Shown here: positions 32,466 to 62,200 of the stretch, piece by piece
Layout of the letters: each line of letters starts with the position of its first letter
How positions within the stretch are numbered: the first letter of the stretch is position 1
Source of the DNA: Callorhinchus milii
Taxonomy: Eukaryota
Assembly (NCBI RefSeq): GCF_018977255.1
Contig: NW_024704771.1
Coordinates: 4,030,001-4,094,000 of the forward strand
Reading direction: 5' to 3'
Length of the DNA stretch: 64,000 nucleotides
The notes under the pieces: generated by a model
The model's database searches: none
Told to the model about the DNA's origin: nothing
What the model saw: only the letters and a program-made list of their open reading frames with translations
Position numbers and translations under genes: made by a program

Positions 32466-33319
32466 GGTCACCTCACGGCCCCCCTGGTCACACACCTATC
32501 AGTCTCAGTGTTTCTGTGCTGTGTGTGTCCCACTCCTTCACTGCTGATCACGTCGATCACTTTCACCTTTGGAACTGCTACGGTGAAGATTGTGGAAAAG
32601 CACCACAGAGATTGAGGCAACGGAGCAAAGTTTATTCTGAACACGGCCCGAAAGTGCTGAGGAGGCAGCGTGAGCATAAGATAAGAAACCTGGAAAATAT
32701 TAACAATAATCCAACGACCTTTGTATTGCATCAGGACGTCTCAAAGCCCCTCACGGGATTTTACTGCAAAGTGTAGTGACTGTGTATTTTGAAATATTAA
32801 ACTGAGATCCGATGTTCCTCTCTCGGTGGACATTAATAAAAGAATTGAAGTTCAGGGCAATAATCCTCGAGTTATAATTGATCATTCACTTCATGATTCT
32901 TTGTGGGACATTGCTATATATAAATTGCCTTGTGCGTTCACCTACAATATACACAGTCACTACACTTCACAGTGTGAAGTGCTTCAGGATATCCTCCTGA
33001 CATGAAAGGTGCCACTTGAAATGCAAAGCTTATTATTAGTTTTATTACGATGATGAGGTTTCGTATGTGGATATAAATTGGACTGAGGTTTAACACCTCA
33101 TGTGAAGGATGGCGCCTCTGACAATGTGGTGCTCCCCCGGCACAGGGCAGGAGTGTCAGCCCAGACCGTGAGCCCAAACCCCTGACGCGATCTCAGGCCG
33201 AAACCATCTCTGCACCACATCAAACCCGGAGTGGTTCGTACCAGGAAATGTGGCCTCAAGACCCCGGACACTGAATTGAAGTGTGTGGGCGGTGCCCCGA
33301 ACCCAACCCAACCGAGGAG

Positions 33320-33970
33320 TTTGGCCCCGCGGTCACCCGGAGGCGGCGGAGCGGGAGCGGCGGGGGGGGGGGGGAGGGGCTGACTGGGCTCCAGGCCTCT
33401 CTCCGGCCTTCTCCCTCTGACCTGCTGCTGTCTCTGGGCTTCAGGCCTCGTCCCTCGTCGCTCTCCCCCTTCAGGGGGTCGTCGTTGCCGCCAACAACAA
33501 AAGGCTCCTGAAGGCGCGCGGGAGCCGCGAGCGCCGACCGTTAGGCGCCGAGGAGCACGTGGGGGGGAGGAGCGGCGCCTGCGCGGTGGCGGCCGATACC
33601 CTTATATGGTCAGACCACGTGCTGATGAGCCTCGCGGACGGCCAATGGGCGTCTGTCTTTCAAATAGGGCGGGAGAGAAACACACCCACGTGACGATCCC
33701 CGCCCAGACCACGTGACGAGGGAGCGCGCGACAGAGCCGCGAGGCGACTGTTCGGCGGCTCCGACTGTGAGGCGCCGAGGAGCGCGCGGAGCCCCGGCTC
33801 GAGGCGGGAGCGGCGCCTGCGCGGTGGCGGCCGAGGCCCAGTCGAGGGTGAGACCACGTGCTGAGGAGCCCCGCGGGCGGCCAATGGGGGACGCGGCGGG
33901 AGCCCACGTGATGAGCGGGAGTGGGCGGGAGACAGAGAGGCGCGAGCGGCGACCGTTACAGCTCGAGCTT
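33320..33970 (-). promoter_or_regulatory. CpG-island promoter/non-coding exon 1, probably of TRIM D
   Basis: CArG/TATA 33600-33609; donor 33422; acceptor at 32689. Confidence 0.6.
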
Positions 33971-33974
33971 CACA

Positions 33975-34565
33975 TCCCCCCACAGGGACAGTTAGAGAGA
34001 GGAGACCCCCCCACAGGGACAGTTAGAGAGGAGACCCCCCCACAGGGACAGTTAGAGAGGAGACCCCCCCCACAGGGACAGTTAGAGAGGAGACCCCCCC
34101 ACAGGGACAGTTAGAGAGGAGACCCCCCCCACAGGGACAGTTAGAGAGGAGACCCCCCCCACAGGGACAGTTAGAGAGAGGAGACCCCCCCACAGGGACA
34201 GTTAGAGAGAGAGACCCCCCCACAGGGACAGTTAGAGAGGAGACCCCCCCACAGGGACAGTTAGAGAGGAGACCCCCCCCACAGGGACAGTTAGAGAGGA
34301 GACCCCCCCACAGGGACAGTTAGAGAGGAGACCCCCCCACAGGGACAGTTAGAGAGGAGACCCCCCCACAGGGACAGTTAGAGAGGAGACCCCCCCACAG
34401 GGACAGTTAGAGAGGAGACCCCCCCACAGGGACAGTTAGAGAGGAGACCCCCCACAGGGACAGTTAGAGAGGAGACCCACCACCCACAGGGACAGTTAGA
34501 GAGGAGACCCCCCCCACAGGGACAGTTAGAGAGAGTGACCACCCCCCATTTGGACAGTTAGACAG
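33975..34565. repeat. ~30-bp minisatellite, ~19 copies
   Basis: Same unit. Confidence 0.95.
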
Positions 34566-35493
34566 AGAAGAGCCCCCTCCCCCCATCCAGAGACCACCAC
34601 GTGACGAGGGAGAGCGAGACAGAGCCGTGAGGGGAGCGGTGACCGTGCGGCGGCTCCGCCTGTGAGGCCCCGAGGAGTGCGCGGAGCCCCGGCTCGAGGC
34701 GGGAGCGGCGTCTGCGCGGTGGCGGCCGAGACCCGTCTACAACAGCAACAACTTGCGCTCATACAGCGCACTCCACACAGAGCGGCGTCTCAGGGGCTTA
34801 ACAGGTGCACTGACAAACAGAAGCATTTCCAACTGAACCCAAATCATAGTTTAAACCATAACATATTCCTGACCCCAACATTCCGGGTTGACGTCGGATC
34901 AGACACTTTATTGGGAGCAAAGTTGACGCATTGGGTACAATCCGGACACAAACCAATAGAAACCTGATCTCAACGGGGAGCCCCACACCCAGAGACCCGC
35001 CCGGTCTGGCCACAGCCCATTCCCGCTCTGGTGCTGCAGGAGGGGCTCTGTCCTGAAGGGGCAAAGGTTTAAACACAGACAAACAAACACCGTCTACAGA
35101 TCAGAGAGTCGGTCCCGTGGAGATGTCACTGGGACACACACGGGTTAGAGTGGGAATGAGGGGGGATCGAGAGAGAGATCTCAGTGTGTCTGAGAGACAG
35201 GAAAGCTCCAGCTGTGACCTCGATGGTTCTGTGTATTTGATATAAACTCTCCCCGCGCTCAGTGCAAAGCCCCTGCAGTGTTAGCGGCCGGGCTGGTCTG
35301 TGGTGAGGTGACGGCTCCGTCACTCACTGTGTGTCCGTCTCCAGCCTTATTACAGGATCTCTATGGACCCGTAGAGCTCGGCATCTTCTCCTGTAATGAC
35401 CCCCCGACCCCATCCGCTCCCACCCCGTATCCCTTAAACAGCAGACAGTGAATCAAATGGAAACTGAGATAAAGCCACGTCACTGTTACTGTG

Positions 35494-38348
35494 TTATAAG
35501 CAGCAGATTCTCAGAGGCTCAGAGTTTTTCCCGCTATCGCTCTGGTGGGGATTGAAGAGAGGATAAAGTTTCTCAGTGAAAGTGTGGGTGAAAGTGTGGA
35601 GATGGGACATGTTGTCAGCGTTGTAAAATGACACCTGTCCCCCCTCATAGTCCAGGTATACCCCGATCTTCCCGGGTCTCACTGTCAGGGGCAGGCGGGT
35701 GGGAGGTGAGGTCAGCGCCCAATAGACCCCACCCACCAGCCACACCCCCCAGACCCCACCCTCTGGTGACCAAGTGATTGGTTGTTTCCTGTTGACAGAC
35801 TCTGTGGCCACTCCCACAATCCACGCAGTCTTGTTGCCCACCTGCACCTCCCAGTAATGTCTCCCTGATGTGAAGCCCTCAGATCCCAGGACGATGGGAT
35901 AGTTACTAAACCTCTTCGGGGTGTCAGGGAGCGGCTGCCGTTTGTCTCCGTGTCTCACACTGGTCAGGTCCTCAGACAGGATGAGCTCGGGATGGGCTGT
36001 GTCAGGATCCAGAGTCAGAGCGGCCGGAGCTGAGAGAGAGAGAAAAATAACAGAGTGGAGTGAGGGGNNNNNNNNNNNNNNNNNNNNNNNNNGTGACGGA
36101 GCGGGGGGGGGGGGGCTGCAGGAGCGAGGGCGGGCACTAGGGGGCGGTGTGTGAGCTGGTGGTCAGAGGGTCAGTTGCTGAACACAGGATAAACAGCACT
36201 GATCGGGTACCGCCGCCAGCAGCGGGCGCTGGGGACAACAACAACAACAACAACAAAATGACAAAGCGCTGAACAGTCAGGTGTCGGGGCCCAAGCATGG
36301 GGAGGGAGGGGTGGGGGAGGTGTGGGGGTGAGGGAGCGGTGAGGGAGGTGTGGGGTTAGGGTGAGAGGTGGGGTGCGGTGAGGGAAGGCAAAGAGGTGGG
36401 TGGGAGACCAAAGGCCACGGTCGAAGAGAAGGGTCTTGAGACCGGCCTTGGAGGAGACGAGGGAGGAAGTGAGGCGAAGGGACCGTGGTCCAGAGTGTGG
36501 GGGCAGAGAGGCTGAAAGCCCGGCCACCGATGGTAGGGCGGGTCGGGCGGGAGACATGTGTTTAGTTTGTGAGGATCAGGTGACTGTCAGATATTCACAC
36601 ACCTTCAGTCTGAGAATGGGAGCCATGTACCTGGGCTGATGCTGTGTCTCATGTCTCTCCAGACTGTGTACTGAAGAGGCCCTTTGTATATCCCCACAGG
36701 CAGATCCCCCTCAGATAGTGACAGCATAAAATCCTTATCACTGATCCTGAAATAAGAGACGTTCACATTATAAAGTGAAACTACACATTGTGTTTGGTTT
36801 GTGCAGTAAATTCTGGGGATATTTTGTGAAGAACATTTCATACCTTCTCTTCCGAGCAGTTTCCTCCTAATGAAATAAAACACAGACAGATCTGAGCTCA
36901 CACTGAGACACCACATTGTAAACTCAGATACACAGAATAGAATTCTACAGCCCTTCCCTATTACATGTGAATATTACTGTAATTATATGTGAGTCCTACT
37001 CATGGTAGCACTGCTGGTGGAAGATCATCAGCAGAGGGCGACTCGGCAAGTCCTACTAGCTAAAAGTCACATATAATTGGTCATTTCCTACACGTTGTGG
37101 GATTGTGCAATGGCCGTCCAAAGTCATCACTTACAGTGTGTTGAGCCTTAGTTCCGACGGAGCGTATTCATGCAAGGTTTTTTTGGTTAGTCTGTCAGAC
37201 AGCAGCAAGTCTCACAGATTATACCAAATAATCAATAAAATCACTGGCTGTTTAACATTCAAGACTGTGACTTTCTGCTCCAGACTATTGACCTTTTCTG
37301 AATAAATTATCATTTCACCTCTTTACCTGCAGAAAGGTGAGAGCGTCTTGTTTCCATCTGTTTCTGTAACTCTGAGAGTTTTCTGCTCAGAGATCTAATT
37401 TGCCCCGAATCTCTCCAGTTTTTCTCCATTGGTGTAAAACTCTCCTCCTCTCGCTGTCTGAGCTCTCGGATTTCACGCTGCTCTCTATCAGTAATGCTCT
37501 GGTGCATTTTTGCAAACTCAGCCGTGATGTGGTTCGCAGATTTGTCGCCTGTTCCTGAAAATGAAGCTCAGACATCACACTGCGCACAGTAAAGAGAGAC
37601 AACGACTGAGAGCCCAGACATCAGCCCCGACACAACTTACCTTCACTTGTGAAATCTTTTTTTCTGTTTCCTTCAGCTTCCAGAGCCGCAGCCTTACTCT
37701 GTGTGAGAGAATCTAAGGAGGAGTTCACTTTATCCTGGAATTAAACACAAACACACAGAGGAAAAGTTGACGTGATATATAGTGACAGTGAGGTGTATTA
37801 TTATATTTTTATAGACATCTGCCATCTGGCGTACTCGCCCCCTAAAGCCCACTCAACCACTAGACATGCATGTCACCCTTCCTCCCTCCCCGTGTCCGCC
37901 CTGGGCGTTCCGTGACGCATCAATGTCTGTGTGTTACCTTATAGATTTCAACAGCTTCGTCAATGGGCAGGAAGCTGTGATCTCTGTGTTCCTGTGCATC
38001 TCTACAGATGTGGCAGATCACCTTCTTGTCAGTTTCACAGAACAGCTTCAGTTGTTCCTGGTGTTTCTCACAGCGACGTTTAATTGCCGTGTCTTTCGGG
38101 TCCAGGTTCAAATCCCGAGCTTTCTCTGACAGATTCCCCAGGGCCCGATTGGTCCTGAGGTTCCTTTCCGGCAAAGTCTCCTGACACACAGGACAGGAGC
38201 TCGGCCCCGGCTTTTCCCAGCACCGTGTGATACAGGAGCGGCAGAAGCTGTGGCTACAATCCAGGATAACGGGATCAGTAAAGAGTTCCAGACAAACCGG
38301 ACAAATTAACTCCTCGGTCAGACTCTGAGTCTGGTGTTGAGAAGCCAT
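35494..38348 (-). CDS. TRIM gene E; RING, linker and B30.2 exons intact, coiled-coil exons with indels (probably low-quality sequence)
   Basis: Exons 38348-37938, 37734-37641 (94 nt vs 96), 37554-37327 (228 nt vs 231, scattered indels), 36866-36844, 36746-36631 and 36029-35494. RING exon nearly identical to gene H. Confidence 0.75.
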
Positions 38349-39369: not shown

Positions 39370-39920
39370 CTGTTGTGTGAAACTACACCGTGTGTTTGGT
39401 TTGTGTGTTAAATCCCGGGGATATTTTGTGAAGAACATTTCACGCCTTCTCTTCCGCCCGACTCCCTCCCCATGAAATAAAACACAGACAGATCTGAGCT
39501 GACACTGAGGCGCGACATCGCAAACTCAAGACAGCGGGGATAAAAAGTATTGCTAAAAATTATGACTGGAACACTAATCTATTACCTCTTACAAAGTATA
39601 CAGTCAATCCACTTGACAGTATATTCCGTGAAGCGGTTTGAGACGGTCTCAAAGCCGTGACAAGGCGCTATACCGAATGCAAAGTGATTATGATTATTGT
39701 TGTTAATTATTAACCATTTCAGGAGGCAGAGCGAGACGTTAAGAAACCTGGAAAATATTAACACTAATCCGTGCGTTTGATATTGGGTCCGGAAGCGGAA
39801 CTTTCACTGAACTGAGTTCGAATTTCGTCGCTTCACCTGCAGAAAGGTGAGTGTGTTGTTTTCCATCTGTTTCCCTGAGAGCCGTTGCTGAACAGAATCT
39901 AAAATGCCCCCCCACCGCCC
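39370..39920 (-). pseudogene. TRIM relic F: decayed 23-nt exon region, 5' UTR acceptor and 3' end of the coiled-coil exon
   Basis: Homology to the paralogue introns (aaactacac...gaagaacatttc...gatctgagct), aaacctggaaaaatattaaca at ~39745, and [18 protein letters not shown] at 39830-39890. Confidence 0.65.
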
Positions 39921-50803: not shown

Positions 50804-53121
50804 TTACCGGCAGATTCTCAGCGGCTCCAAGTTTTCGCTGTCGTCATTCAAACCGGGATAGAAGAGAGGGTAAAGTTTCTCAGTGAAAGTGTGGGTGAAG
50901 GTGTAGAGGGGAGACACGTTATCAGCGTTGAAAAATGTCAGCCGTCCCCCCTCATAGTCCAGGTAAACCCTAATCTTCCCGGGTCTCACTGTCAGGGGCA
51001 GCTCTGGGGGAGGAAATGAAGTCAGAGCCCCGTAGACCCCGCTCCTGAGCCACACACCCCAGACCCCACCCTCCGGTGACCAGGTGATCGGTCCTTTCCT
51101 GTTGATGGACTCTCCGGCTAGTCCCACAAGCCACTCAGTCTTGTTGCCCACCTGCACCTCCCAGTAATGTCTCCCTGATGTGAAGCCCTCAGATCCCAGG
51201 ACAATCAGATATTTACCAAACCTCTTCGGGGTGTCAGGGAGCGGCTGCCGTTTGTCTCCGAGTCTCACGCTGGTCAGGTCCTCAGACAGGACGAGCCAGG
51301 GATGGGCTGTGTCAGGATCCAGAGTCAGAGAGACCGGAGCTGAGGAAGAGGAAACAGTGGATTAAAAGCGCTCACACAGCGCCACGGACTGGTGACTTAG
51401 AGATAATTCAAGGGTAAAGTGCCCTGGGCTGTTTAATTTGTTAGGATCCAGGTGAACGTCAGACTATTCACACACCTTCATTCTGAAAATGGGAGACGTT
51501 TACCTGGACTGTCGAGGTCTGTAATCTCTCTCCCAGTTGTGCACTGTGCAGGTTCTTTGTAGATCCCCACAGGAAGATCACCCTCAGGTAACGACAGCTG
51601 AATATCCTCCGCACCGATGCTAAAGTAAGAGACGTTCACATTATGAAGTGAAACTGCGCATTGCGTTTGGTTTGTGTTGTGAATTCTGGGAATATTTTTT
51701 GAAGAACGTTTCATACCTTCGCTTCCGAGCAGTTTCCTCCTAATGAAATAAAACACAAGACAGATCTGAGCTCAGACTGAGACACGAACGACATTGTAAA
51801 CTCAGATACACAGAGTAGAATTCTGCAGAACGGTTCACTGTAATTATTACAGGAACGTTCGTCACTCAGTGTCGTCTCCAAAGCCAGAAAGTTCAGATAG
51901 AGAGAAAGTATAAAGTGGTGTTTGTGTGTGTTCGTCGTCAGGGACACATGAGACCTGCGTACAGACACACACTCACGCTCAGTAAGTTACACCTACTGAC
52001 CTGTAGATACAGTAAGTAGAACTTTAATGGGATTATACTGTTCAGATATAGAACAACTATAAAGTGCCGTTTGCGTGCGATTATAGACGGGGACACACAG
52101 TGAGATCTGCTTACGTACAGACACACACACACACAGTACCTTCCAGATGCGCATCTGTAGTTACTGTACATTAGAACATTAACGGGATTACACTTTAATT
52201 AGAAGGTGAATGATTGTAACATTCTCCCACAGATAAATAAATGCTAAAGCTCAGGATCACCACAGCTAAAGTGTCCCCGGATGTTGGCACCTGTTTCTGC
52301 ACAATGAAATGTCGGATATACAATACATAAATTGCATTTGTCCCGCACCTTTCACGTCGGGAAGGCAAGGTGCTGAACAGTCAGGGATTTGGACCCGGGA
52401 TCGGTGTTGGGATTGGGGAAGGAGGAGGGGAGGAGGGTGGTCGAAGGCTCAGTCAAAAGAGGAGGGTTTCGAGCTCACGCGGTTCAAGTGAAAAATGCGA
52501 CCGAGAGTCCAGACATCAGCCCCCGAAACGACTTACGTTAACTTGTGAGACCTCTTGTTTCCGTTTCCCTTCAGCTTCTGGAGCGGTGGCCTCCCTCTGC
52601 GCGGGAGAAGCTGAGGCGGAGTTCACGCCTTCCTGGAACAAAATACAGAGAGGAAAATTGTTTGACTGCGACAATGTGAATTAATATCAATTAATCCCGT
52701 GGTGAGGGCTATTTTTTACCTTGTCGATTTCAACAGCTTTGTCACTGGCCAAGGAATTGTGATCTCTGTATTCCTGTGCATCTCTGCAGGGGTCACAGAT
52801 CAGTTTCTCTTCAATTTCGCACAGCAGCTTTGATTCTTCCCGGTGTTCCTCACAGTGACTTGTGATAACCGTCTCTTTCGAAGCCAGGCTCAAACCCTGA
52901 GCTTTCTTCGACAGATACGCCAGGGCCTTGAGGTTCCTTTCTGAGAAGGGCTCCTGACATACAGGGCAGGAGCTCGGCCCCTCTTTTTCGCAGCCCGGCG
53001 TGATGCGGGAGCGGCAGAGGCTGCGGCCGCACTTCGGGGTGGCGGGATCGGCAAAGAGCTGCGGACACACCGGACATTTTAACTCCTCGGTCTGACTGTC
53101 AGCCTGGCGTTGGGAAGCCAT
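50804..53121 (-). CDS. TRIM gene G: degenerate RING/B-box, 231-nt coiled-coil exon absent, intact B30.2, open frame (~390 aa)
   Basis: Exons 53121-52720, 52632-52537, 51739-51717, 51619-51504 and 51339-50804; all GT-AG, no stops. AATAAA on minus at 50746-50751. Confidence 0.8.
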
Positions 53122-53152
53122 TTCACCCTCAGCACTTCCTGATTCAAAACTG

Positions 53153-53164
53153 CTTTCACTTTCC
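53153..53164 (-). promoter_or_regulatory. ISRE/IRF-E element upstream of TRIM G
   Basis: GGAAAGTGAAAG on minus, ~32 bp before the ATG. Confidence 0.55.
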
Positions 53165-53360
53165 CTGTTTGCGATTATCAAATGAATGCGTCCTGAGCAC
53201 AACTGCAGAACACTTCAGGGACCAGTCACTGGGGTGCTGTGAGTCTTCCCTCTCAGCCCCTGATAACCCGCTGTGAGCCAAAGCCCCGATGGAGAAAGGT
53301 GGTCCTCTGGGCCGATTAAACCGATAAACCAGTTAACTCATGATGTAGGGCCCCCAAGCT

Positions 53361-53555
53361 ATCCAGAGTCAGAGAGGCCGGAGCTGAGGGAGAGAGAAAA
53401 ATAACACAGAGTGGAGTGAGGGGGTCACGGGAGGGGGGTGGGGGGGGGGTTGCAGGAGCGAGGGCGGCACTCGGGGCCGGTGTGTGAGCTGGTGGGCAGA
53501 GGGTTAGTTGCGGAATACAGGATAAACAGCACTGATGGTGTACCGCCGCCAGCGG
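53361..53555 (-). pseudogene. Isolated relic of a TRIM last intron plus the first codons of the B30.2 exon
   Basis: atccagagtcagagaggccggagctgag...aaacagcactgatggtgtaccgccgccagc, homologous to 19070-19260. Confidence 0.65.
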
Positions 53556-55141: not shown

Positions 55142-57434
55142 ATGGCTTCTCAACACCAGACTCAGAGTCTGACCGAGGAGTTAATTTGTCCGGTTTGTCT
55201 GGAACTCTTTACTGATCCCGTTATCCTGGATTGTAGCCACAGCTTCTGCCGCTCCTGCATCACACGGTGCTGGGAAAAGCCGGGGCCGAGCTCCTGTCCT
55301 GTGTGTCAGGAGACTTTCCTGGAAAGGAATCTCAGGACCAATCGGGCCTTGGGGAATCTGTCAGAGAAAGCTCGGGAAATGAACCTGGACCCGAAAAAGA
55401 CAACAATTAAACATCGCTGTGAGAAACACCAGAAACAACTGAGGCTCTTCTGTGAAACTGACAAGAAGTTGATCTGTTCCATCTGCAGAGATGCACAGGA
55501 ACACAGAGATCACAGCTTCCTGCCCATTGACGAAGCTGTTGAAATCTACAAGGTAAGCAATAACCCCGACACGGGATTCATTCTCTTCCACTTTATATTT
55601 TCACATCCAAACACATTTCCTCTGTGTGTTTGTGTTTAATTCCAGGATAAAGTGAACTCCTCCTTAGATTCTCTCACACAGAGTAATGCTGCGGCTCTGG
55701 AAGCTGAAGGGAAACAGAAAGAAAAGATTTCACAAGTGAAGGTAAGTTGTGTCGGGGCTGATGTCTGGGCTCTCAGTCGTGTGTCTCTCTTTACTGTGCG
55801 CAGTGTGATGTCTGACGCTTCATTTTGCAGGAACAGGCGGACAATCTGCAGAACCACATCACGGCTGAGTTTGCCAAAATGCACCAGAGCCTCACTGACA
55901 GAGAGCAGCGTGAAATCCGAGAGCTCAGACAGCGAGAGGAGGAGGTTTTACACCGAATGGAGAAAAACCTGCGAGAGATTCGGGGCAAATTAGACTCTGA
56001 TCAGGAAAAGCTCTCAGAGTTACAGAAACAGATGGAAAAAGATGCTCTCACCTTTCTGCAGGTAAAGAGGTGAAATTATAATTTAGTTCAGCAAAGGTTC
56101 AGAATCTGGAGCAGAAAGTCACAGTCTTGACTGTTAAACAGCGCAGTGATTTTATTGATTATTTGGTATAATCTGATAAGAGACTTTGCTGCTGTGGAAT
56201 TCTATTCTGTGTATCTGAGTTTACAATGTGGTGTCTCAGTGTGAGCTCAGATCTGTCTGTGTTTTATTTCATTAGGAGGAAACTGCTCGGAAGAGAAGGT
56301 ATGAAATGTTCTTCACAAAATATCCCCAGAATTTACTGCACAAACCAAACACAATGTGCAGTTTAACTTTATAATGTGAACGTCCCTTATTTCAGGATCA
56401 GTGATGAGGGTTATACACTGTCACTATCTGAGGGGGATCTGCCGGTGGGGATATACAAAGGGCCTCTACAGTACACAGTCTGGAGAGACATGAGACACAG
56501 CATCAGCCCAGGTACATGGCTCCCATTCTCAGACTGAAGGTGTGTGAGTATCTGACAGTCACCTGATCCTCACAAACTAAACATTGTTGGTGATGAGATG
56601 TCACTGAGGGACACAGCGCAGAGCTCTGTACTCTTGTAGTTACCGCGTTACCGTCAGTAGGAGGCGCTGTGTGAGCGTTTTCACCGATATTGACCCGTCA
56701 CACTGACCCCAGCGCCCGCTGCTGGCGACGGGACACCATCAGTGCTGTTCAGCAACTGACCCTCTGACCACCAGCTCACACACCGCCCCCTAGTGCCCGC
56801 CCTCGCTCCTGATGCCCCCCTTCTCCGTCACCCCCTCACTCCACTCTGTGTTATTTCTCTCTCAGCTCCGGCCGCTCTGACTCTGGATCCAGACACAGCC
56901 CATCCCCGGCTCATCCTGTCTGAGGACCTGACCAGCGTGAGAGACGGAGACAAACAGCAGCCGCTCCCTGACTCCCCGAAGAGGTTCAGTTACTATCTCA
57001 TCGTCCTGGGATCTGAGGGCTTCACATCAGGGAGACATTACTGGGAGGTGCAGGTGGGCAACAAGACTGCGTGGACTGTGGGAGTGACCAGAGAGTCTGT
57101 CAACAGGAAACAACCAATCACGTGGTCACCAGAGGGTGGGGTCTGGGGGGTGGGTCTGGGGGGTGGGGTCCATGTGGCTCTGACCTCCCCTCCCACCCCC
57201 CTGCCCCTGACAGTGAGACCCGGGAAGATCGGGATTTTCCTGGACTATGAGGGGGGACAGGTGTCATTTTACAACGCTGACAACATGTCCCATCTCCACA
57301 CTTTCACCCACACTTTCACTGAGAAGCTTTACCCTCTCTTCTGTCCTTCAGGTCCTCTATTTTTTACGTATACAAGTGATTTGTGTTTCTCTGACGGTAA
57401 CAACTCGGAGCCGCTGAGAATCTGCCGGTTTTAA
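55142..57434 (+). CDS. TRIM gene H, intact RING-Bbox-CC-B30.2 (~481 aa; 11-aa insertion near the C-terminus)
   Basis: Exons 55142-55552, 55646-55741, 55831-56061, 56276-56298, 56396-56511 and 56866-57434; AATAAA at 57985-57990. Confidence 0.93.
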
Positions 57435-59253: not shown

Positions 59254-62200
59254 ATGGCTTCTCAACACCAGACTGACTGTCTGACCGAGGAGTTAAAATG
59301 TTCGGTTTGTCTGGAACTCTTTACCGACCCGGTCACCCTGGATTGTGGCCACAACTTTTGCCGCTCCTGTATCTCCCAGAGCTGGGAAAACAGGGAGAGC
59401 AAAGCCTGTCCCGAATGCAGAACAGTCTTTGCTAACAGTAACATGAGGGGCAACTGGGCCCTGGCGAGGCTGGCGGAGAAAGCTCGACGGCTCAACATTT
59501 CCCCGGTGAAGACAGAAAGAAAACTTCACTGTGAGGAGCATCAGGAGGAACTGAAGCTGTTCTGTGAAACAGACAAGAAACTGATGTGTGTGATTTGCAG
59601 AGACGCCCGAGAACACAGAACCCACAGCTTCATCCCCGTAGCGGAGGCTGTTCAGATCTATAAGGTAAAAGGTACCAGACAGTCAATCGGGCGCAGTCTG
59701 ATCCAATTCTCTGTTTCGTTAATCAAGATTTTTCTCACAGTTTCTATTTAATTCCAGGATAAAGTGAACTCCTTCTTAGACTCTCTCACACAGAGGAAGG
59801 CCGCGGCTCTGGAAGCTGAAGGGAAACAGAAAGAAAAGATTTCACAAGTTAAGGTAAGTTGTGTCGGGGCTGATGTCTGGGCTCTCAGTCGTGTTTCTCT
59901 CTTTACTGTGCGCAGTGTGATGGCTGATGGTTCATTTTGCAGGAACAGGCGGACATTCTGCAGAACCACATCACGGCTGAGTTTGCTAAAATGCACCAGA
60001 GCCTCACTGACAGAGAGCAGCGTGAAATCCGAGAGCTCAGACAGCGAGAGGAGGAGGTTTTACACCGAATGGAGAAAAATCTGCGACAGATTCAGAGCAA
60101 ATTAGATTCTGTTCAGCAAAAGCTCTCAGAGTTACAGAAACAGATGGAAAAAGACGCTCTCACCTTTCTGCAGGTAAAGAGATGAAATTATATTGACATT
60201 CTGTTCATCTGCGACCAGGACTTCCTCTGTCTCCTCATCCTCTCTGCTGCCTTCAACACCGTCGACCCCTCTGTCTTCAGCCACCGCCTCTCCTCTCACC
60301 GCAACCTTCACGGCGCTCCTTGATTGGTTCCGATTGTACCTCTCACACCGTCTCCACTTCATCTCCACAAACGGCTTCTCCTCTATAGCCTCCGCACCAT
60401 CTCATGTGGCGTTCCTCAGAGCTCTGTCCTTCGTCCCCTCCTGTTCAATATCTATATGCTCCCTCTTGGGTGACATCATCCGCAGACGGGGGATCTACTT
60501 CCACACGTATGCGGATGACACCCACTGTAACTCTCTGCTTCCACCTTCGACTCCAGATCCACTGCTGTCCTGACAGAATGTCTGTCGGACATCAAGTCCT
60601 GGATCAGAGCTAATATTCTTCAGTTAAACATCAACAAGACCGAGGCCTCCTGATTGGCCCCCGTCTGCGCCTCCTCACCTCAGGCATCAGCAGAATCATC
60701 ATCCATGGTTGCGCACTCCACCTTACTAACCCAGTCCAGAAAATTGGCGTCTTGTTTGACCCTCAACTATTGTTTCTAAACCAAATCTGCGCCATGACCC
60801 GCTCTGCCTTCCCCCACCTCCGCACCATCACCCGGCTCCACCACTGTCTCACACCGTAGGCCGCCGAAACCCCCATACACACGTTCAGCTCGTCAGCCTC
60901 CCCAACTACTCCCTCCTTAGGCTGCAGATCATCCAGAACTCTGCAGACCGCCTTCTCTCCCACACTTGGCTCCGTGACCCTATCACACCCATCCTCACCC
61001 GACTCCACTGGCTTCCCATCACACAGAGGATACAGTTTAAGATCCTGGACCTCACCTAAAGGCCCTCCATGGCCGCGCTCCCCACAAGCTCTGCAAACTC
61101 CTAACCCGCTACCATCCTGATCGCTCCCTCCGCTCAGCGGGCTCCAGGCTGCCTCACGTCCCCCGCCCTGCTCGTCCCACTATTGGCTGGCGGGCACTCT
61201 GCCACTCTGTCCACGCCCTCTGGAACTCCACCCCGCAGTCCACCCGCCGTGCCCCCTCCCTTGCCTGCTTGAAGACTCATCTCCGGACCCTCCTCCCTGA
61301 CCATGCGTTTGATCACCCACTTCTCCCCGAGCCCTCCAACCGCCCCGATCCCGACTCCCAGCTCGGGTCCGAAACTCTGACTGTCCAGCGCCTTGGGACA
61401 TCCTCCCGATGTGAAAGGCGCTTTACAAATGTAATTTTGTTGTTGTATAATTTAGTTCAGTAAAAGGTACACACAGTCTGTCGCAGAAAGTCAGATTCTG
61501 ACTGTTAAACAGCCCAGTGATTTTATTGATTATTTGGTATAATCTGATAGAGACTTTGCTGCTGTAGAATCCTATAATGTGTATCTGAGTTTACAATGTG
61601 GTGTCTCAGTGTGAGCTCAGATCTGTCTGTGTTTTATTTCATTAGGAGGAAACTGCTCGGAAGAGAAGGTATGAAATGTTCTTTACAAAATATCCCCAGA
61701 ATTTACTGCACAAACCAAACACAATGTGTAGTTTTACTTTATAATGTGAACGTCTCTTATTTCAGGATCAGTGATGAGGGTTATACACTGTCACTATCTG
61801 AGGGGGATCTGCCTGTGGGGATGTTTGAATGGCTTATACAGTACACAGTCTGGAGAGACATGAGACACAGCATCAGCCCAGGTACATGGCTCCTATTCTC
61901 AGACTGAAGGTGTGTGAGTATCTGACAGTCACCTGATCCTCACAAACTAAACAGTGTTGGTGATGAGATGTCACTGAGGGACACAGCGCAGAGCTCTGTA
62001 CTCTTGTAGTTACCGCGTTACCGTCAGTAGGAGGCGCTGTGTGAGCGTTTTCACCGATATTGACCCGTCACACTGACCCCAGCGCCCGCTGCTGGCGACG
62101 GGACACCATCAGTGCTGTTCAGCAACTGACCCTCTGACCACCAGCTCACACACCGCCCCCTAGTGCCCGCCCTCGCTCCTGCTGCCCCCCTTCTCCGTCA

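Follow-up and report, generated by a model that had tools for sequence, protein, structure and literature searches.

An open, spliced TRIM gene of Callorhinchus milii with a decayed RING and B-box, no main coiled-coil exon and an intact B30.2 domain

TRIML2 is a eutherian duplicate of TRIML1 that lacks both the RING and the B-box and carries a PRY/SPRY domain. It is inducible by poly(I:C) and dampens inflammation without E3 ubiquitin ligase activity of its own (PMC6993854). TRIML2 occurs in all four eutherian superorders and has a retained coiled coil, the proposed route of its action on other TRIMs (PMC6993854). For zebrafish, the finTRIM and btr accounts describe large clusters of class IV TRIMs with recombination, positively selected B30.2 loops, pseudogenes and truncated forms, and btr31, in which the B-box and coiled coil are replaced (PMC2657112, PMC3137616). 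Here we describe gene G, on the minus strand of a 64,000-nt window of the Callorhinchus milii genome (G000:C30:4030001-4094000, close to the end of a 4.1-Mb contig). Gene G has a decayed RING and B-box and has lost its main coiled-coil exon, while its reading frame is open, its introns are spliced and its B30.2 (PRY-SPRY) domain is intact.

TRIML2 appears to be the closest functional precedent of G. Like TRIML2, G has no functional RING, has kept the PRY/SPRY domain and is expressed. The two differ in that the zinc fingers are deleted in TRIML2 and retained in G as a decayed leader that would be translated, in that the coiled coil is lost in G, and in that G comes from one species. As far as the available text of the finTRIM and btr accounts goes, no copy is described with an open, spliced but neutrally decaying RING-B-box-coiled-coil (RBCC) region, unlike G (PMC2657112, PMC3137616). 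The B30.2 structures of TRIM21, pyrin and BTN3A have the same fold as G (42-46% identity, template-modelling (TM) score ~0.8 on the target) and, unlike G, sit on functional dimerising or membrane scaffolds. With the C. milii class IV TRIMs annotated as 'zinc-binding protein A33-like' or 'nuclear factor 7-like', G shares exon phases, promoter and PRY-SPRY domain; it differs from the A33-like TRIMs in a RING and B-box below the Pfam cut-offs, a deleted coiled-coil exon and a decayed linker helix. Its exon structure and its position in the paralogue tree place G by descent in the A33-like cluster. Judged from its sequence, G is thus an A33-like class IV TRIM by descent and, by the defining domains, not a TRIM ligase. 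RING-less regulatory TRIMs are already known. A literature search, at the level of listed records, found no paper on gene G or its C. milii cluster.

The region is a cluster of class IV TRIM genes, for which 16 models were built (C30:3.98-4.115 Mb). When the genome was searched with one RING-B-box exon as query, 394 candidates yielded 150 scored matches, 20 of them with stops, and the family has at least 150 exon-1 copies. Gene G is single-copy, with DNA identity of at most 88% elsewhere in the genome. In the family numbering its five exons are 1, 2, 4, 5 and 6, and exon 3 is the deleted 231-nt coiled-coil exon (Table 1). The open reading frame encodes 390 residues and terminates in TAA TAA; every intron is GT-AG and all eight splice sites are intact, as the original prediction had stated. 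The encoded protein is identical to RefSeq XP_007883081.1 (P0001), annotated 'zinc-binding protein A33-like', and its sole methionine is residue 1, in exon 1. The two regulatory signals expected at the ends of the gene are present as well: upstream, the motif GAAAGTGAAA, which we take to be an element of the interferon-stimulated response element/interferon regulatory factor (ISRE/IRF) type, and downstream, an AATAAA hexamer resembling a poly(A) signal. A GAAA-N(1-2)-GAAA motif occurs at the equivalent upstream place in genes H, I and E and in none of B, C and D. Directly 5′ of the G promoter lies a paralogue relic (53362-53553, minus strand), a sign of rearrangement at the 5′ end of the gene. 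Rfam returned three tRNA-like matches over the window and nothing else.

The RING of G carries H33R and C39R, confirming the predicted ligand loss, and we take these residues to belong to the two different zinc sites of the cross-brace, each of which has then lost one ligand. The predicted histidine-to-tyrosine change in the B-box is found at residue 118, together with the conservative change D104E. Neither the eight RING ligands (C3HC4) nor the eight B-box2 ligands of a class IV TRIM are complete in G, and the coiled coil between B-box and B30.2 is missing. Sites that are otherwise invariant in the family are substituted as well (L20P, V27A, L29P, W44C, L97S and Y133D). Among these, L20P, V27A, L29P and L97S, with two prolines in exon 2, bear out the reported replacement of hydrophobic core residues by proline, serine or alanine, and the reported frame-keeping loss of three codons corresponds to a 9-nt deletion just after the RING. 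The RING-family profiles of Pfam give G 21.3, 20.7 and 17.3 bits, none at its cut-off (best 21.3 against 30), and the B-box scores 16.6 against a cut-off of 24.1; gene H passes both. Among the 80 open-frame exon-1 copies (of the 150 matches), 69 keep 16 of 16 zinc ligands, and G is the most altered, with 4 of 16 changed. Ligand loss at each RING site, together with W44C, should abolish recruitment of the ubiquitin-conjugating enzyme (E2). The linker encoded by exon 5 has decayed too (W203G, I210D and R174S).

The 231-nt, phase 0-0 coiled-coil exon is lost. No match to it was found within the DNA of G, it is absent from the RNA contigs, and two DNA runs carry the deletion; of the 16 local paralogue models, all but G have it. 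An assembly artefact was considered for this loss and rejected, given the deletion in two DNA runs and the exon junction in two RNA runs. The TRIM_CC profile has below-cut-off matches in paralogues P0005 and P0013 and none in G, although the isolated exon of gene H has no Pfam match either. At the deletion site, where intron 2 of G abuts intron 3 sequence of the B/C/D type, there is a repeat (~52317-52466) with 75% identity to the 3′ end of an element that lies in a gene I intron and has reverse-transcriptase-like remnants in its body; the summed contig depth of the repeat reaches ~8,700 in one bin of the DNA runs. The L2 tail reported there corresponds to this repeat, and the name L2 is our presumption. 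The element in intron 3 of gene I (window 60190-61450, minus strand) is a decayed long interspersed nuclear element (LINE) whose reverse-transcriptase-like remnants are interrupted by stops and frameshifts. With most of the long helix gone, the antiparallel TRIM dimer should no longer form, and from knowledge of the family we infer that G would have neither E3 activity nor this dimer.

Loss of this exon is not confined to G. Among the top 120 protein matches, seven of 66 elasmobranch proteins (P0030, P0035, P0037, P0048, P0052, P0058 and P0098) lack the same 77-residue coiled-coil span. These seven models come from four shark species and have an intact RING motif, unlike G; as gene models they may reflect deletion, skipping or annotation error, and a short form that recurs is one possible reading of them. 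In the C. milii genome, 12 further loci were checked and one of them (L145, G000:C63:41000-46600) is without the exon. There, the coiled-coil and 23-nt exons are mostly gone, all zinc ligands are intact, and the RefSeq model (P0026) stays in frame through a cryptic exon. Exon loss thus appears to be recurrent in this family rather than unique to G.

The B30.2 domain of G is intact, as claimed for it, with PRY (84.8 bits) and SPRY (68.6 bits) both above the Pfam cut-offs. A Foldseek search with the G model's C-terminal domain matched the TRIM21 PRYSPRY (E 5.5e-21, TM 0.82 on the target). In a full-length AlphaFold model from a 14-row alignment (mean predicted local distance difference test score (pLDDT) 53), only the B30.2 domain is folded, with moderate confidence, and the N-terminus is mostly of low confidence; a single-sequence model of the domain was uninformative (pLDDT 38). 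One codon is inserted in the domain (F321), and private changes cluster at residues 336-358. The preceding 213 residues have a net charge of -10 and 18% large hydrophobics, against -2 to +8 and 25-28% in 13 paralogues, and are probably disordered. Positive selection for this loss of hydrophobicity was examined and set aside, being borderline only against the mutation spectrum of the gene itself (p 0.025-0.054).

These features could suit a stand-alone binder, in which the former RBCC is now an acidic disordered tail and the B30.2 domain, instead of competing with a paralogue, has a ligand of its own and serves as a sensor, an adaptor or a sink for a pathogen protein. The acidic, hydrophobic-poor composition (with its borderline shift), the low model confidence across most of the N-terminus, and the F321 insertion and 336-358 cluster, both unique to G, are in line with it. 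However, no signalling module remains in G, the low pLDDT derives from an alignment of 14 sequences, and 14 of 15 hypervariable B30.2 residues occur in local paralogues. In a zebrafish study, a B30.2-only construct of FTR83 gave no antiviral protection (PMC5445110). We regard a stand-alone binder as unlikely.

Twelve runs from three studies contain the stretch or part of it, and four of them (X1, X3, X9 and X12) were aligned over 51345-53300, which covers exons 1-5. Five further runs look like RNA and contain 0.27-0.42 of the sequence words. No run is recorded as RNA, and the RNA status of X1 (study P1) and X3 (study P2) rests on exact GT-AG joints; the contigs carry no information on expression level or tissue. 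In each of X1 and X3, a single contig spans exons 1-2-4-5, with a loose end that reads into exon 6. The joints are 52719/52631, 52536/51738 and 51717/51619, all CT..AC, so that the junction 52537->51739 that had been proposed as a check is present in two studies. None of these joints is found in the DNA runs X9 and X12, which both carry the deletion. Three coding single-nucleotide polymorphisms were seen in exons 1-5 (K65K, G136D and G203G), two of them synonymous, and no stop or coding indel in any of the four runs. Stops, frameshifts and lost splice sites, the hallmarks of a pseudogene, are likewise absent from the assembly.

The kinds of substitution differ sharply between the 5′ exons and B30.2. 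At sites invariant in both the sharks and the local paralogues, 20 of 52 residues of the 5′ part are altered in G, against 12 of 87 of B30.2 (p=0.0015). The conserved 5′ residues change at the general rate of 5′ codons (20/52 vs 72/190), which suggests that constraint was slight or absent over most of the G branch. Large hydrophobics were lost at 16 of 45 positions in the 5′ exons and at none of 48 in B30.2 (p=2e-6), and three intact control genes lost none of 32 in exon 1. The 20 changes in B30.2 are conservative by the blocks substitution matrix (BLOSUM; mean +0.40 against a null of -0.66, p=0.002) and by profile (p=0.0025), whereas for those in the 5′ exons BLOSUM shows no departure from random (p=0.59) and the profile a slight lean to conservative change (p=0.03). 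The BLOSUM test has low power, since only two of eight intact paralogues pass it in exon 1 and three of ten in exon 6, and the failure of exon 1 of G on BLOSUM alone therefore means little. Synonymous T>C changes are equally frequent in the two halves (11/49 in the 5′ exons, 7/28 in B30.2), and nonsynonymous ones number 12/72 against 0/62, in a class picked after the table had been viewed. We also observed an AT-to-GC excess in the 5′ exons (52720-53121, 52537-52632 and 51504-51619; 69/303 vs 35/297 sites) that is absent from the introns of G (23/291 vs 18/191) and weak or absent in the control genes.

The open frame itself is informative. In simulated neutral accumulation of 135 substitutions, the 5′ exons stayed free of stops in 2-6% of runs. 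If 65-100% of the branch was neutral, 4-9 lesions are expected in the 5′ exons, with a probability of 0.0002-0.017 of none, and the chance of the whole gene staying open is ~0.01 or less even with 50% of the branch neutral. The AT-to-GC bias on the branch lowers the stop rate insufficiently to account for the open frame. After allowing for dozens of dead copies, an open frame by luck is unlikely. Because the only methionine is residue 1, translation has to pass through the decayed exons to yield B30.2, unless it starts at a non-AUG codon, which would explain a neutral 5′ sequence with a protected frame. G is a real and spliced paralogue of an unusual kind, and the statistics give fair support to selection on the frame and the B30.2 fold. 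The proposal that selection keeps only these two is partly supported, in that the 5′ exons show relaxation, the core of B30.2 does not and frame retention is improbable by chance; the rate test described below does not decide the matter.

We propose that G, RING-dead and without its main coiled coil, would make a monomeric, non-ubiquitinating PRY-SPRY protein that, by binding what an intact paralogue targets, would protect these targets from ubiquitination. Selection would keep the 5′ frame only for reaching B30.2, plus the B30.2 fold itself, as the sequence statistics suggest, and interferon is predicted to co-induce G through the retained ISRE-like site. At 15 hypervariable B30.2 columns G equals gene B at 10, gene H at 4 and other genes at 2-5 (13 other local genes, maximum 5), and the rest of exon 6 puts it no nearer to B than to the other genes, with 42 differences in a range of 37-50. 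Exon 1 of G shares 77-78% identity with E, p4012 and H, and its introns are ~88% identical to paralogues in the 3′ half and 72-82% in the 5′ half. G therefore looks chimeric, with an H/E-type promoter and exon 1 and a B-type 3′ half. The loop likeness and this make-up point to B (window 21184-18556), not H, as the candidate competitor, and the noted head-to-head placement with H deserves little weight. In H, 11 codons are inserted close to the C-terminal end of B30.2 (last exon, window 56866-57434), a feature not shared by any other of the 15 aligned local last exons; in B, the GFTSG motif has a Phe-to-Val change. That the G protein is functional in some way is probable. That it is a non-ubiquitinating PRY-SPRY competitor of a paralogue we put at a little under an even chance. 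A more specific form, in which G is an evolved decoy with an inert acidic disordered leader and B30.2 loops matched to B, and the interferon-induced monomer titrates ligase targets or soaks up a pathogen antagonist, seems rather doubtful.

Several results weigh against this competitor proposal. Codon models for the G branch give a ratio of nonsynonymous to synonymous rates (w, or dN/dS) of 0.71-0.76 with a synonymous rate (dS) of 0.28-0.29 in exon 1, w 0.93 and dS 0.24 in exons 2, 4 and 5, and w 0.62 and dS 0.155 in B30.2. The per-exon values are all statistically compatible with 1 and with the paralogue background, and since that background is already 0.6-0.8, whole-exon branch dN/dS has no discriminating power. 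The predicted pattern of w near 1 in the RBCC and below 1 in B30.2 appears only when all parts of the gene are made to share one dS (w 1.00 for the 5′ exons vs 0.45, p=8e-5) and is lost with separate dS (0.78 vs 0.62, p=0.55), where B30.2 does not differ significantly from 1 (p=0.13); whole-gene w is 0.73 (p=0.08 vs 1). dS is lower in B30.2 (0.155) than in the 5′ exons (0.27, p=0.06), and past gene conversion may account for part of the intactness of B30.2. Under strict polarisation, the synonymous signal among B30.2 transitions fades (4/109 synonymous vs 9/212 nonsynonymous). The lesion calibration uses 36 copies picked as broken (frameshifts to stops 34:29, in-frame indels 5), some of whose frameshifts may be assembly errors, and with at least 150 exon-1 copies a single open copy needs a multiple-testing discount. 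In other individuals, the stretch covered and seen to be open is exons 1-5. No orthologue of G was found, although the search says nothing firm on absence: only G itself exceeds 71% identity, exon 1 reaches at most 58% among representatives, and the named matches include no other chimaera. The expected conservation of the frame is borne out for exons 1-5 in the four runs. A hidden closer parent for exon 1 was sought and rejected, as four extra H-clade copies left branch dS at 0.28.

The partner raises further objections. The likeness to B may be plain shared ancestry, as 8 of the 15 hypervariable matches are attained in three of 22 distant copies. Exon 5 of B (window 19556 region) has a GG acceptor instead of AG, with an AG 6 nt downstream that would preserve the frame, and no ISRE-like site was found within 150 nt of the B ATG. 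A B30.2 monomer should compete poorly with avid dimers, and G is known from nucleic-acid sequence, its protein being predicted.

Some of these results suit a transcribed pseudogene, in which function is lost, the frame is open by luck, and the last exon is intact from an earlier functional period and conversion by intact neighbours. The non-significant B30.2 dN/dS with its lower dS, the higher intron identity in the 3′ half, the stop-sparing AT-to-GC bias, the 36 or more broken copies in the family and the lack of a detected orthologue are all compatible with it. Conversely, exon 5 lies within the 3′ half and has decayed as much as exon 1, and none of the 20 B30.2 changes of G costs a large hydrophobic. 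The low chance of an open gene on a half-neutral branch and the eight intact splice sites, with splicing in two studies, also speak against a pseudogene, which we consider fairly improbable.

The conserved columns of exon 1 also count against our proposal in its simplest form. Their w is 0.53 (p=0.049 vs 1), which indicates that exon 1 is not cleanly neutral and that residual or past constraint is possible. Together with a position-specific scoring matrix test (p 0.01-0.03), this might point to a residual or altered RBCC function, in which half-folded zinc fingers (12 of 16 ligands, one B-box site complete) allow G to associate with intact paralogues, in the way suggested for TRIML2. The deleted coiled-coil exon, the prolines in exon 2 and the damage to both RING zinc sites stand against this, as do the loss of 4 of 16 ligands, not clearly under the general rate (38%), and the absence of hydrophobic losses in exon 1 of the intact controls. 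Such a function is very unlikely. Still less probable, to the point of being barely credible, is that G is kept as a gene-conversion template for the B30.2 loops of active paralogues. The mosaic cluster and the loop codons common to G and B would fit a sequence donor, but donation would not preserve the 5′ frame or splicing. A search of 119 proteins and the remaining L002-L030 loci gave no conversion donor for the private 336-358 residues, which are at most singly shared there.

Table 1. Positions of gene G, its degenerate domains and neighbouring elements (window coordinates)
Feature	Position	Strand	Evidence
Exon 1 (402 nt), 134 codons, decayed RING and B-box, only Met	52720..53121	-	gene model, Pfam, spliced in X1 and X3
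Exon 2 (96 nt), coiled-coil start, now with two prolines	52537..52632	-	gene model, spliced
Exon 4 (23 nt), joined straight to exon 2	51717..51739	-	joint 51738/52536 in X1 and X3
Exon 5 (116 nt), linker, decayed too (R174S, W203G, I210D)	51504..51619	-	contigs, alignment
Exon 6 (536 nt), PRY-SPRY (B30.2), residues 214-390, intact	50804..51339	-	Pfam, Foldseek, RNA contigs enter its first 21-22 nt
Degenerate RING, C16-C55 (H33R, C39R, L20P, V27A, L29P, F35L, W44C)	52957..53076	-	Pfam, alignment
Degenerate B-box (H118Y, D104E, L97S, F100L)	52759..52854	-	Pfam, alignment
ISRE/IRF-like element GAAAGTGAAA, 42 nt before ATG	53154..53163	-	motif search
AATAAA poly(A)-signal-like hexamer (putative)	50746..50751	-	sequence
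LINE (L2-like) 3′ tail at the coiled-coil exon deletion site	52317..52466	-	75% identity to element in gene I intron; deletion in X9 and X12
Tandem duplication, 149-nt spacing, in the fused intron; in G only among four genes aligned	51891..52097		alignment
Relic: 3′ end of another paralogue's last intron and ~25 nt of PRY exon, truncated	53362..53553	-	88% identity to gene B last intron

Other features were observed in the cluster. A TRIM relic with part of exon 3 and exon 4 lies between E and G (window 39421-39910, minus strand). Gene E (window 35500-38348) has 1-2 nt deletions in exons 2-3, and gene C (window 23950-26760) is missing 5 nt of exon 5 and has its last exon frameshifted at several points; given the low divergence of both, these lesions may be assembly errors rather than marks of pseudogenes. 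At G000:C30:4021544-4031158 (L036 and the window start), two genes have identical exons 1-5 and different B30.2 exons, which by their sequence are a recent duplication with a swapped binding domain. An intergenic unit is repeated per gene (window 32600-35400, with copies upstream of B, C, D and beyond), in which a ~30-nt minisatellite precedes a CpG-rich block that contains several CACGTG and CCAAT-like motifs. Outside the window, a paralogue without exon 1 lies at G000:C30:4001753-4004528, and RING-exon relics lie upstream of genes J and K (G000:C30:4099262-4099409 and 4110018-4110165).

The case is limited to one species, and its novelty is bounded by the RING-less regulatory TRIMs already known. 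Since the annotation labels G an ordinary zinc-binding TRIM, similar cases may hide in other clusters. If the competitor proposal is true, an expanded antiviral-type ligase family would have grown its own brake, with the recognition domain kept while the catalytic and pairing parts decay in frame. C. milii would then offer a testable ligase-decoy pair in a cartilaginous fish, and G, if it is the evolved decoy of the more specific form, would be a natural halfway stage toward stand-alone B30.2 proteins.

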